Assembly: GCA_017613275.1 (NCBI GenBank)
Contig: JAGAED010000006.1
Span: forward strand, 24,841-88,840
Source: Clostridia bacterium
GTDB lineage: Bacteria; Bacillota; Clostridia; TANB77; CAG-508
Length of the DNA: 64,000 nucleotides
Reading direction: 5' to 3'
Shown one piece after another: positions 54,323-56,436 of this stretch. Both the position numbers and the translations under genes were made by a program. Each line of letters begins with the position of its first letter. The stretch's first letter is position 1. The notes below the pieces were generated by a model. It saw nothing but the letters and a program-made list of their open reading frames with translations, did no database searches and was not told the DNA's origin.

Positions 54323-54351
54323 TTGATTTTATGCGGAAAATGTGGTATAAT
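54323..54351 (+). promoter_or_regulatory. Strong sigmaA-type promoter (TTGATT-17-TATAAT with TGn extended -10)
   Basis: TTGATT 54323-54328, TGG 54343-54345, TATAAT 54346-54351. Confidence 0.65.
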
Positions 54352-54420
54352 ATTAACATAAAATGTTTTAATTATAGACTAATAATTTGCTATGATGAAA
54401 ACAAATGTCTACAAAAGGAG

Positions 54421-54432
54421 TGTGATATCACA
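54421..54432. promoter_or_regulatory. Perfect 12-bp palindrome TGTGATATCACA in the operon leader (candidate operator)
   Basis: Self-complementary 12-mer about 65 nt downstream of the -10 and about 58 nt upstream of the GTG start. Confidence 0.4.
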
Positions 54433-54489
54433 AACAAAATTGTAAGCCCAAAAACCAGAAAACCAAAAACTATAAAGGAGGAATCAGCA

Positions 54490-55560
54490 GTGCTACAACT
54501 GCAAGTAAGCAACATTGACATCTGTCGGATTAGTCAAATACTTGTAAAATATAATATAAAAGCAAGCATTTCTAATTCGCATATCACATTGGAAGGTGAT
54601 ATTTCAAATGAATTACTCACTAAGATTTGTGGGGAATCTGAAATGGAGATAAGATCCATTCAGAACTTTGTTAGAGAAGATATATCAGATTTTCTGATGC
54701 CGGTATTTGTACAACAACCGGAATTTGACCTATTGTATCCGAAGGTCAAGTTTGGAGAGCTGTATTTGTGCGATTTTGGTGACCCCTATGAACACGAGCT
54801 GGGATTCATCAGATATGCAATTATAGTGCAAAACAATTATGGGAATGAAAGCTCTTCAACAACAATAGTTGTACCATGTACAACTAAAAATAAGCGATTT
54901 TTCTCAACTAATTATTATACTACATTTTCTAGCGACAATATGATTGACTACGATATTAAAAAAGTAGGAACGAAGGAAAATGTAATAAAGATTGAGCAAA
55001 TCAGAGCAGTGGATAAGTCAAGACTAAGAAAGTATCTAGGGACACTGAAGCCGGAATTAATGAGTGAAATCTTGGAAAAAATCCATGAAAACATGCAGTT
55101 GAACGAGGACTCTAACAATGTAGATTATAAAAAAGTTTACATTTCCAGAAAGAAGGAACCTGCAAGGTATAGAAAAGATCTGAATATGACTCAAATTCAG
55201 ATTTTGTCTCGTGTAGAGATAAAAAAACTGATAGAAATTTCCGATAGTAATCTCGAGGATGAGAACAAAGTCGAAAAAATCTTAGAGTTGTTCGGATTTA
55301 ATCTCAATCAAAAGGGCGTAAAGCTGCTGGCAAAAGCTATTCTTGCTTCTCCCAAGGATGAATACTTTAACATTGAAACTTTATCAGAAATTGTTTCACG
55401 AGATGAAGTAATTAGCAGGGAAGAAGTTAAAAGATTGATTATTGCAAGAGTTAAAGAAACTTTTGGTTTTAGCAAAGCTCCTACAATTGACTTCATACGA
55501 GTAATTAATGCATTTTTAACAAAACAGGAGGAAAACAAAGATGAAGAAACTAGTTTTTAA
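54490..55560 (+). CDS. Three-domain fusion protein (356 aa): novel N-terminal ~60-aa domain + MazF/PemK-like endoribonuclease fold + C-terminal Spo0A_C-like helix-turn-helix domain
   Basis: GTG 54490 is 7 nt after AAGGAGGA; FGELYLCDFGDPYEHELGFIRYAIIVQNNYGN...TTIVVPCTT...IKIEQIRAVDKSRLRKYLGTL matches MazF/EndoA motifs; LFGFNLNQKGVKLLAKAIL...SREEVKRLIIARVKETF...APTIDFIRVINAFL parallels the Spo0A C-terminal domain. Confidence 0.75.
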   Translation: MLQLQVSNIDICRISQILVKYNIKASISNSHITLEGDISNELLTKICGESEMEIRSIQNFVREDISDFLMPVFVQQPEFDLLYPKVKFGELYLCDFGDPYEHELGFIRYAIIVQNNYGNESSSTTIVVPCTTKNKRFFSTNYYTTFSSDNMIDYDIKKVGTKENVIKIEQIRAVDKSRLRKYLGTLKPELMSEILEKIHENMQLNEDSNNVDYKKVYISRKKEPARYRKDLNMTQIQILSRVEIKKLIEISDSNLEDENKVEKILELFGFNLNQKGVKLLAKAILASPKDEYFNIETLSEIVSRDEVISREEVKRLIIARVKETFGFSKAPTIDFIRVINAFLTKQEENKDEETSF

Positions 55561-56347
55561 GGTTGCTCAAAAGAAAGAAGACTCGTTGCTCCCTTTGCTT
55601 AAGGAAATCAACAAAATCTCATGTAAGATTTGTTTTGAACTTAACAAGGGCATTGTGGCTGTAGAGAATGTTGATGAAAACATGCTTGATACAGTAATAG
55701 GGCTGATAAATAGTTACTATACTATTATAAGCGTTGATATTGACAACACCAATGAATTTGCAACTAAAACAAATGATACTGAAAAGCCGACAACTTCAGA
55801 ACCGGAGCTTCCAGAGGATTTTGTACGGAAAGTTGGAAATGAATATATTGATAACAAAATCAGTGCGTTGTGCAAGTCAGTATATTGGTCATTGTCAAAA
55901 TGCAATGCCACCGAAAAAGAATTGGGCGACTATATTCAAACATGTATAAGTAAAATATCAATGAGATATTCGAAAAATTCAATTATAGAGTTTGAAATTG
56001 GTGATGTTGTTGAGGTCGATTTTGATTATGCACTCCCAGGTGAGCTTTATAAGAAACATATGCATGCAATTGTAGTTAGCTTGTTTAATGAAGAGCAAGC
56101 TGACGTTATACCAATAACAAAGAACAAAACAGATTCTAGAGATTGTATTTGTTTTGAGGCTCCTGAGGATGTTATTTACTATAATGATTATTTTACAGGT
56201 GGATCAGCGATTGCTGACAGAACTATACGCTTAAGAACGGTACGATTCATTTCTGTAGTTGGTAAAACAAAGAAAGAATTTTTTAAAAAACTTATTGAAG
56301 AACTTCCCAAGGCATATGACTTTAGGAAAGAATATATTGATTTGTAG
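55541..56347 (+). CDS. Two-domain fusion protein (268 aa): paralogous N-terminal ~60-aa domain + divergent PemK/MazF-like barrel
   Basis: ATG after CAGGAGGAAAACAAAG, overlapping the upstream gene by 20 nt; FEIGDVVEVDFDYALPGELYKKHMHAIVVS...ADVIPITKNK...RTIRLRTVRFISVVG. Confidence 0.7.
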   Translation: MKKLVFKVAQKKEDSLLPLLKEINKISCKICFELNKGIVAVENVDENMLDTVIGLINSYYTIISVDIDNTNEFATKTNDTEKPTTSEPELPEDFVRKVGNEYIDNKISALCKSVYWSLSKCNATEKELGDYIQTCISKISMRYSKNSIIEFEIGDVVEVDFDYALPGELYKKHMHAIVVSLFNEEQADVIPITKNKTDSRDCICFEAPEDVIYYNDYFTGGSAIADRTIRLRTVRFISVVGKTKKEFFKKLIEELPKAYDFRKEYIDL

Positions 56348-56355
56348 ACATTATC

Positions 56356-56384
56356 TGGGCAGGATTTATATCCTGCCCACTTTT
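56356..56384 (+). terminator. Rho-independent terminator
   Basis: TGGGCAGGA-tttata-TCCTGCCCA perfect 9-bp GC-rich stem followed by CTTTT. Confidence 0.8.
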
Positions 56385-56396
56385 AAATTCATAAAT

Positions 56397-56436
56397 AAAA
56401 AATCATCTAATATATTTATATTAGATGATTTTTTTG
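56397..56436 (+). terminator. Second terminator hairpin
   Basis: AATCATCTAATATA / TATATTAGATGATT perfect 14-bp arms flanked by an A-run and a T-run. Confidence 0.75.

Follow-up and report, generated by a model that had tools for sequence, protein, structure and literature searches.

A two-gene MazF/PemK-fold operon without a MazE/PemI-type antitoxin gene in a Clostridia bacterium

The 64,000-nt stretch of DNA analysed here (the window: positions 24,841 to 88,840 of the forward strand of contig JAGAED010000006.1, assembly GCA_017613275.1, from a Clostridia bacterium) carries a self-contained operon of two genes, at 54323-56436 in window numbering, whose products both contain a MazF/PemK-type fold. 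The module is an undescribed layout of a well-known toxin family: the nuclease itself is of the known MazF/PemK type, and the module is not a canonical mazEF/pemIK. We read it as an autoregulated, toxin-antitoxin-like endoribonuclease (RNase) module in which gene 1 is the effector and gene 2 a paralogous partner that would restrain the nuclease, a reading to which we give a probability of about 0.45, a little short of even. Somewhat doubtful is the more specific proposal that it represents a new type II-like organisation, in which an active MazF is checked by heterodimerising with a catalytically altered paralogue (a toxin/pseudo-toxin pair), the pair being held together by matched ferredoxin-like N-terminal domains, with a Spo0A_C-type operator-binding domain moved onto the toxin and no antitoxin of known fold.

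MazF is among the best-studied bacterial toxins, and textbooks describe how a small, labile antitoxin that binds DNA controls it. In canonical mazEF/pemIK modules a small antitoxin of the AbrB or ribbon-helix-helix (RHH) type is encoded immediately upstream of a toxin of ~110 aa, and in ordinary toxin-antitoxin modules the DNA-binding function belongs to the antitoxin. A first-pass annotation of the window, made from the letters of the sequence, had not recognised the architecture of the operon as that of a described system, and our literature search likewise found no description of a paired MazF-fold architecture, nor of Spo0A_C fused to an RNase. The domain identities, the strict linkage of the two genes, the lack of a MazE/PemI gene, and the conservation both of catalytic residues and of the promoter and leader were all established computationally.

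The unit is delimited by an extended -10 promoter at its 5' end and two strong terminators at its 3' end (Table 1). The start of gene 2 lies 20 nt ahead of the gene 1 stop, and the identical 20-nt overlap was found in distant loci. As in a canonical module, the overlap, the internal Shine-Dalgarno sequence, the single promoter and the two terminators point to a co-transcribed, translationally coupled pair, and direct reading bore out each of these elements, and the leader of ~130 nt up to the GTG start at 54490, as the first-pass annotation had described them. An alternative open reading frame (ORF) of 409 aa for gene 1 begins inside the promoter; the 356-aa form is the correct one, because a GTG or TTG start with its Shine-Dalgarno sequence is conserved across loci. 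Together the two terminators have a minimum free energy of -34.7 kcal/mol (z=-8.2), equalled by 0 of 200 shuffles. The sole Rfam match on the operon, a sub-threshold one to the trpB ncRNA motif (31 bits, where the gathering score is 59) at 56356-56440, lies over these terminator hairpins and was taken as chance.

No antitoxin-like ORF was found in any frame at the locus, and no small ORF of the region had a Pfam match. Across ~35 related loci, no MazE/PemI-type gene adjoined the homologues; the sole gene seen with a MazE_antitoxin (AbrB-type) Pfam match, in L004 and L005, lies 4.4 kb off, behind five other genes. The first-pass claim that the module has no such antitoxin, which homologues regularly preceded by one would have contradicted, thus held throughout the survey. 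Essentially all loci of the family, on the other hand, have a gene 2 homologue after gene 1, in most cases overlapping it by the same 20 nt, so that the question whether the pair is conserved can be answered with yes: in the surveyed loci the genes are strictly linked. Gene 2 diverges faster than gene 1 (68% versus 80% identity in the closest relatives; 43% versus ~53% in L001), and antitoxins typically diverge faster than toxins. The NCBI pipeline labels homologues of both genes 'PemK/MazF family toxin' (for gene 2, homologue MBR0490838.1).

Relatives of gene 1 form more than 240 clusters of 340-450 aa, all with PF02452. At 50% identity the family comprises ~83 clusters, every one of them from uncultured gut Clostridia. 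In GTDB the family is carried by ~37 of 185,579 species representatives, with a patchy distribution; the carriers are metagenome-assembled genomes (MAGs) of uncultured gut and rumen Clostridia (goat, sheep, rabbit, human) plus one Bacilli MAG.

Domains of the two proteins

Residues 88-200 of gene 1 match Pfam PemK_toxin (PF02452) at E=4.5e-22, with 78.7 bits against a cut-off of 23.1 and coverage of profile positions 2-107 of 109. A profile of the gene 1 family searched against the PDB found B. subtilis EndoA at E=1e-23, and the nuclease domain is ~30% identical to the solved MazF proteins of S. aureus and B. subtilis. The AlphaFold2 (AF2) model of gene 1, with a mean predicted local distance difference test score (pLDDT) of 71.7 and a predicted template modelling score (pTM) of 0.38, consists of three well-predicted blocks with disordered linkers between them; Foldseek matched it to MazF structures at E=5e-8 with template modelling scores (TM) of 0.76-0.81, so that the model has the predicted SH3-like barrel of MazF, Kid and CcdB.

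On alignment to B. subtilis MazF, R108 of gene 1 falls on R25, T131 on T48, Q114-N115 on Q31-N32 and E169-Q170-I171-R172 on E78-R81. In the published MazF-RNA structure 4MDX, R25 and T48 are the catalytic residues of B. subtilis MazF. Within the gene 1 family the Arg is retained in 51 of 66 representatives (it is replaced by Glu in seven) and the Thr in 56 of 66. By sequence, fold and catalytic residues alike, gene 1 is by its nuclease domain a bona fide member of the MazF/PemK family; it is predicted to act as an RNase and to be toxic. Rather than a single-domain protein of ~110 aa, it is one of 356 aa with three domains.

The first-pass annotation had identified the MazF domain correctly and left the C-terminal third of gene 1 uninterpreted, missing a further domain. 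The model of this region has seven helices in residues 233-343 with pLDDT 78-93. Five phage proteins named 'Sporulation initiation factor Spo0A C terminal' in BFVD matched it in structure at E 0.013-0.21, four of them with a probability of 0.99-1.00 and TM 0.50-0.66 and the fifth more weakly (probability 0.92, TM 0.44). In divergent gene 1 homologues the homologous region matches Pfam Spo0A_C (PF08769) at 2.3e-5 (P0226; 24.8 bits against a cut-off of 25), 1.9e-4 (P0222) and 2.5e-3 (P0223), and among close homologues 2 of 13 reach E=0.08; gene 1 of the window had no match to this profile above threshold. No Spo0A was among the Foldseek matches listed for the gene 1 model against the PDB, and a profile comparison with Spo0A (1LQ1) was not significant. 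On account of the BFVD structural matches and the Pfam matches of divergent family members, we call the domain, with moderate confidence, Spo0A_C-like, and as such a putative DNA-binding domain.

A phmmer search of 1.84 billion representatives with the C-terminal domain by itself returned 83 proteins, all of this architecture, and hence nothing that would connect the family to a different domain layout. In BFVD, several 'PemK-like' proteins from phages, 180-266 aa long (e.g. Q332J9, A0A8S5SHR3), align with the gene 1 model over ~270 columns, and therefore multidomain MazF proteins exist in phages too.

At its N-terminus gene 1 has a small domain that is highly conserved in the family and for which profile searches of Pfam and the PDB gave no sequence match. 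Gene 2 begins with a domain of the same predicted topology: its AF2 model (pLDDT 76.4) comprises an N domain at residues 2-68, a disordered linker, two long helices within 101-143 and a barrel at 155-254. A weak PDB-profile match of this N domain to a plant HMA domain (E=0.11) is consistent with the predicted ferredoxin-like topology, and Pfam gave nothing consistent for the N domains of either gene. The N domain is the sole gene 2 domain present in all two-gene loci. The helical hairpin that follows has the conserved residues N100, Y102, W116, E125, K126, S140 and Y143, and is missing wherever the MazF-like domain is missing.

The barrel of gene 2 was matched by Foldseek to MazF structures with a probability of 1.00 and TM 0.66-0.76 over ~112 aligned columns, a model-based assignment to the MazF fold. 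Against Pfam PemK_toxin the window protein falls below threshold (13.3 versus 23.1 bits, E=0.099), though with full-length coverage; 7 of 10 relatives match, among them P0145 at 1.4e-6 (28.9 bits, the one match above the cut-off) and P0143 at 1.1e-4 (22.8 bits), and hhalign aligned the gene 2 domain to the MazF domain of gene 1 at E=3.1e-5. At the position of the catalytic Arg gene 2 has Met, Val or, depending on the alignment, the adjacent and nearly invariant His173; the Thr equivalent, T193, is kept. The proposal that gene 2 ends in a second, divergent MazF barrel without the conserved Arg was thereby upheld, the fold by structure prediction (TM about 0.7) and the loss of the Arg by alignment, and the Foldseek comparison of monomer models that the first-pass annotation had suggested found a MazF fold for both proteins. 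Outside the clade of the window gene 2 is longer (420-490 aa) and has an extra C-terminal helical domain, for which comparisons with Spo0A and Pfam gave nothing significant.

Table 1. Features of the operon, in coordinates of the window
Feature	Position	Strand	Description	Basis
Promoter	54323..54351	+	-35 TTGATT 54323-54328, 17-nt spacer, extended -10 TGgTATAAT 54343-54351	10/12 match, TG present
Box 1	54355..54363	+	AACATAAAA (most relatives have TTTACATAA), located around the transcription start; candidate operator half-site	
Leader stem-loop	54364..54403	+	outer helix GUUUU/AAAAC, inner hairpin of 7 to 9 bp	inverted repeat; covariance model
Box 2	54401..54411	+	ACAAATGTCTA, contains TGTC, inverted relative to box 1	unique exact match in window
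Upstream Shine-Dalgarno-like element and palindrome	54415..54431	+	AAGGAG 54415-54420, then perfect 10-bp palindrome GTGATATCAC 54422-54431	
Gene 1 Shine-Dalgarno	54475..54481	+	AAGGAGG	invariant in leader alignment
Gene 1	54490..55560	+	356 aa, GTG start; N domain, predicted MazF endoribonuclease, Spo0A_C-like domain	
Gene 1 N-terminal domain	54490..54669	+	aa 1-60, beta-alpha-beta-beta-alpha-beta	AF2, pLDDT 72-82
Gene 1 MazF/PemK domain	54745..55095	+	aa 86-202, catalytic-equivalent R108 and T131	Pfam, PDB profile, Foldseek, residue mapping
Gene 1 C-terminal domain	55174..55524	+	aa 229-345, helical, Spo0A_C-like helix-turn-helix	BFVD structural matches; Pfam in divergent homologues
Gene 2 Shine-Dalgarno	55526..55531	+	AGGAGG, within gene 1 3' end	direct reading
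Gene 2	55541..56347	+	268 aa; N domain, two long helices, MazF-like fold	
Gene 2 N-terminal domain	55541..55747	+	aa 1-69, beta-alpha-beta-beta-alpha-beta, HMA-like pattern	AF2
Gene 2 helical hairpin	55832..55978	+	aa 98-146	AF2 helices 101-120, 125-143
Gene 2 MazF-like domain	55988..56314	+	aa 150-258; Arg replaced, H173 and T193 conserved	Foldseek, hhalign
Terminator hairpin 1	56356..56379	+	10 bp (6 GC), then U-rich tail	
Terminator hairpin 2	56397..56434	+	17 perfect bp, then U run	

Promoter boxes and leader

The DNA from the -35 element to the start codon of gene 1 is better conserved than the proteins (~50% protein identity), and the promoter is kept in 30 non-redundant related loci. 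While the first-pass annotation had rightly reported a promoter and a leader, it had missed how strongly the region is conserved, together with two operator-like boxes and a covarying hairpin.

Of the 30 loci, 23 have a box 1 8-mer (TTTACATAA-type; TTACATAA or TTTACATA), whereas in shuffles no 8-mer was present in more than 9. The box overlaps the core promoter in every case, just after the -10 element (at +1) in the main clade and within the 17-nt spacer in two distant clades (TTGTAT-TTTACATAACTTTGTGA-TATAAT and TTGAAT-CTACATAAAAATCATGA-TATAAT). Since it is kept on the core promoter while shifting relative to the transcript, box 1 is best read as an operator. The core of box 2, AAATGTCTA, is found once 5' of gene 1, after the hairpin, in ~27 loci, and box 2 is an inverted partial copy (ATGT) of box 1. 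The putative operator boxes within 54300-54440 are TTAACATAA and ATGTCTA. The 0A box of Spo0A is TGTCGAA, with TGTC common to it and box 2. The Spo0A_C-like domain of gene 1 is the evident candidate for binding the boxes.

Between the boxes lies a stem-loop, for which a covariance model was built from nine leaders. The model found exactly one strong match per locus in ~27 related loci, always just 5' of gene 1, and in the window it matched 54355-54420 at 64.5 bits. In an alignment of 19 loci fitted to the model, all nine inner pairs of the hairpin have changed on both sides, and the share of paired cells is 86.9%, compared with 73% in shuffles (none of 500 equalling the real value) and at most 56% when the partners are slid, although the alignment was fitted to the structure, which favours the pairing score. 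Folds of single leaders gave the same hairpin with unrelated stem sequences, enclosed by UUUUGU/ACAAA. RNAalifold on a MAFFT alignment of the leaders predicted no structure, the variable arms of the hairpin being misaligned, and no Rfam family matched the stem-loop. A strand test, with 15 G-U and 12 A-C pairs, did not separate an RNA hairpin from a DNA palindrome; the RNA hairpin is favoured because the stem sequence is free to vary. Such a hairpin could be a stabiliser of the mRNA 5' end or a regulatory RNA.

After box 2, an AAAGGAG or AAGGAG precedes the start by 52 to 75 nt in 27 to 30 of the 30 loci, the copy in the window being ~70 nt 5' of the real Shine-Dalgarno sequence. A leader peptide or tiny antitoxin translated from it was rejected, as the mini-ORFs are by inspection unconserved in frame or length. 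By analogy, this element without a conserved ORF recalls the 'STAB-SD' mRNA stabilisers of Bacillus.

Natural variants and competing readings

In the mechanism that we propose, the effector would be gene 1, a sequence-specific MazF-type RNase whose catalytic Arg/Thr pair is intact, flanked by a ferredoxin-like (HMA-like) N domain and a Spo0A_C-type domain. The helix-turn-helix domain of gene 1 would bind the TTTACATAA and ATGTCTA boxes, which overlap the core promoter and flank the leader hairpin, and the toxin polypeptide itself would then carry the autorepressor function that is normally given by the antitoxin. Gene 2 is the translationally coupled, divergent paralogue, in which an N domain of similar kind is followed by a helical hairpin and by a MazF-like fold whose Arg is replaced; it would pair with gene 1 through both N domains. 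In the clade of the window, a heterodimer of MazF with the MazF-like protein may replace the active homodimer, and the RNase would be held in check until gene 2 is lost or displaced. The RNase activity and toxicity, the binding of DNA at the boxes, the formation of a heterodimer and the assignment of which partner neutralises which are predictions. The first-pass annotation had suggested neutralisation either in cis by the N-terminal domains or in trans by the degenerate paralogue, and each is a possible route.

Several loci provide what amount to natural domain deletions. In L042 (3986-4678) the MazF domain of gene 1 is precisely deleted in frame, with the N and C domains kept and gene 2 intact, and in L045 (~1086-1564) it is lost and the frame broken, gene 2 again being intact. 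Loss of the nuclease is thus compatible with survival of the remaining parts, a pattern to be expected if the effector is costly. L023 (3956-5228) has gene 1 and the leader intact, with Arg and Thr present, and a gene 2 reduced to a 67-codon remnant in which the first seven codons are joined to the last ~40. In L036 (1518-2777) and L039 (3905-5164) one ORF joins the MazF and Spo0A_C-like domains to the gene 2 C-terminal domain, without the N domains and without the second MazF fold. That the two N domains are lost together fits a matched pair, and the fusion is unlikely to be an assembly artefact, because the arrangement occurs in two diverged species. In L031 the gene 1 nuclease is intact, with catalytic Arg and Thr kept, and gene 2 consists of the N domain and the C extension only; in L041 and L044 the Arg of the gene 1 nuclease is changed to Glu and gene 2 is without its MazF-like domain.

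A number of observations weigh against the restraint of gene 1 by gene 2 in a toxin-antitoxin-like module. An intact gene 1 nuclease is not tied to any one domain of gene 2: the C extension is missing in the clade of the window, and other domains in L031, L023, L036 and L039. Since these four loci have the nuclease without the MazF-like domain of gene 2, a pseudo-toxin acting as antitoxin cannot be the universal mechanism. The variants are themselves MAG sequences, in which single cases could be assembly errors. The matching pattern of the two N domains, pointed out in the first-pass annotation, is present in both AF2 models, but the sequence similarity between the domains is marginal (hhalign E=0.04-0.085). 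The same annotation had called the second MazF copy degenerate, which is right as to the replaced Arg and too strong otherwise: because His173 and Thr193 are conserved we do not call the domain dead, and it may be a second active or RNA-binding subunit, not an inhibitor. The C extension of the long forms of gene 2 resembles the C domain of gene 1 weakly, in register lengthwise (hhalign E=0.0075 over 84 columns, to 0.024), and is absent from gene 2 in the clade of the window; this is suggestive of genes 1 and 2 being full-length paralogues (N, MazF, C), of which gene 2 in the window's clade may have lost the C domain. The genomic setting points the same way. No mark of mobility or defence was seen in the window: the flanks hold core genes (pseudouridine synthases, an S1 protein, murE/mraY) of normal composition; close relatives (73-80% identity) keep the neighbours found in the window, with an AAA+ ATPase upstream and murE-mraY downstream; PADLOC matched neither protein; and searches of phage records, PLSDB and IMG/VR turned up no relative of full length.

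The variants bear on a rival that we regard as rather unlikely, in which gene 1 is a fused toxin-antitoxin held inactive in cis by its C-terminal Spo0A_C-like domain, which would also bind the operator in the manner of a normal antitoxin, or by the linker. Gene 2 would then serve as an accessory sensor or in regulation, and the arrangement would be akin to CapRel(SJ46) and EzeT. Wherever the gene 1 nuclease is intact, the C domain of gene 1 is there too, and no other element has this property. In L023 gene 1 is kept although gene 2 is not functional, in L036 and L039 it survives within one fused chain, and the MazF-like domain of gene 2 is dispensable in L031. Fused toxin-antitoxin systems are moreover established (CapRel, PMC9712102; EzeT, as cited in PMC4803016). 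Yet hardly any locus departs from the pairing with gene 2 and the translational coupling, as would suit a partner that is essential; the linker that joins the MazF domain of gene 1 to its C domain is variable, not acidic and modelled with low confidence; and the model has no structural sign of the C domain packing on the nuclease (pTM 0.38).

The genomic setting bears on a second rival, unlikely in our judgement, according to which the pair is a resident, self-regulating heterodimer, both RNase and transcription factor, that acts on particular host RNAs and is non-lethal, like MazF enzymes of high specificity, perhaps working in response to a ligand or protein through the N domains, and is no addiction or defence module. 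Besides the syntenic location among core genes, the normal composition, the lack of a PADLOC match and the lack of full-length relatives in the phage, plasmid and viral collections, the conserved His and Thr of gene 2 are in keeping with it, as is the survival of the scaffold after loss of the nuclease (L042) or of the catalytic Arg (the seven representatives with Glu); a regulatory MazF action of narrow specificity has been discussed for B. subtilis (bioRxiv 10.64898/2026.08.06.743204). Against it, the pair sits at different, unrelated sites across genomes, as a mobile cassette would: its neighbours include DUF218 with a methyltransferase/HATPase/HNH set, HTH_3 and rpoB, a transposase and HNH, an ABC protein and mnmA, dnaJ and rny, murE, and a restriction-modification-like set. 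The patchy distribution among species, the repeated decay of the module and a tight autoregulatory architecture typical of toxin-antitoxin modules likewise tell against a resident enzyme.

Whether the operon belongs to a prophage or defence island had been raised in the first-pass annotation, and for the window this was not supported, in view of the core flanks, normal composition and synteny in close relatives. A prophage, plasmid or defence-island origin was rejected, given the searches of phage records, PLSDB and IMG/VR and the absence of a compositional anomaly. In PHROGs the MazF part of gene 1 gave the only match.

Finally, it is highly improbable that the structured leader RNA is itself the antidote, a type III-like RNA antitoxin or decoy binding the MazF-fold proteins as ToxI binds ToxN: the conservation of the leader beyond that of the proteins, its covarying hairpin and a UACAU (the B. 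subtilis MazF site) at the leader start in most loci would suit such a role, but tandem RNA repeats are absent (a trivial CCAAAAA repeat was all that the search gave), as is a terminator between leader and gene 1, the freedom of the hairpin sequence to vary makes a specific protein-binding pseudoknot unlikely, the ACAUAA box lies 5' of the transcription start in distant clades, and the window leader has AACAU in place of UACAU and taken alone a folding energy no better than shuffles (z=0.01).

When the coding sequences of both genes were pooled over 17 loci and compared with codon shuffles, ACATA proved rarer than expected (23 occurrences where 54 were expected, z=-4.7), and TACAT was mildly depleted (z=-2.0); the 5-mer control was imperfect, many A/T-rich 5-mers also appearing 'depleted', and we draw no conclusion on avoidance of MazF sites by the genes themselves.

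Two co-directional genes lie directly upstream of the operon (51520-54273), with their own terminator at 54281-54304. The product of upstream gene A has 313 aa, contains a Replic_Relax winged-helix domain and is weakly matched in PADLOC to HTH_IX and a retron effector; upstream gene B encodes a 582-aa AAA+ ATPase resembling SpoVK, CbbX and EccA (PADLOC IetA, E=5e-12). As this upstream pair is syntenic in the close relatives L007 and L008 and absent beside distant homologues, it may be a separate two-gene system. The only defence-like neighbourhood seen was that of L001-L003 (8595-13134 and equivalents), where an Eco57I/MmeI-type methyltransferase, an HATPase_c_3 protein and an HNH nuclease adjoin the pair.

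Relation to known systems

Set beside the MazEF/EndoAI (ydcDE) system of B. subtilis and MazEF of S. aureus, the operon of the window has a related nuclease of the same fold, with the Arg, Thr and EQIR positions aligned, and is also a two-gene operon, the tight conservation at the promoter suggesting autoregulation. Unlike them, it has no upstream AbrB or RHH antitoxin, its toxin has 356 aa and two extra domains, its predicted DNA-binding domain is on the toxin, and the downstream partner is itself of MazF fold. In its working it would come closest to a type II module whose gene order is reversed.

CapRel(SJ46) (PMC9712102) and EzeT resemble it in that a toxin domain is covalently joined to possibly regulatory domains and no separate classical antitoxin is present; they differ in being toxSAS and zeta kinase toxins encoded by single genes, whereas the operon of the window has a coupled paralogous gene and inhibition in cis is only a possibility. 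MazF-mx of Myxococcus xanthus (PMC2701414, PMC4803016) likewise has no adjacent MazE gene and a functional link to a DNA-binding regulator, but its neutraliser, the transcription factor MrpC, is encoded elsewhere and is unrelated to Spo0A_C, and there is neither a paralogous partner nor a fusion.

To the effector domain of Spo0A (PF08769; PDB 1LQ1, 1FC3) and the small stand-alone Spo0A_C proteins of Firmicute phages, gene 1 is linked by the match of its C domain to five such phage models, by the Pfam matches of its homologues (down to E=2.3e-5) and by the TGTC-containing box in its leader; it differs in having no receiver domain and in being fused to an RNase, the window protein lying below the Pfam threshold. 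Type III ToxIN also has a Kid/MazF-fold endoribonuclease downstream of a conserved, structured non-coding region, but the operon of the window is without tandem antitoxin repeats and without an intervening terminator, and it has a protein partner.

Surveys of multidomain toxins exist for the HicA and RelE/ParE families (PMC10865869, PMC11980606), and our literature search found no comparable survey for MazF. Modularity of toxin-antitoxin systems is by now expected, and the layout described here is a clear and conserved departure from the textbook one.

If this picture of a nuclease fused to a DNA-binding domain and paired with its own diverged copy is borne out, the activity of a MazF would be governed otherwise than by the classical antitoxin: by a paralogue, by domains in cis, or by both. 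The search space for toxin-antitoxin and defence modules would also widen, as annotation pipelines label each gene of such a pair separately as a 'PemK/MazF toxin'. The loci L023, L031, L036/L039, L042 and L045 form a natural domain-deletion set that would be informative on the roles of the individual domains, and the highly conserved promoter and leader would be a compact setting in which to study how a Spo0A_C-type domain autoregulates in a context other than sporulation.

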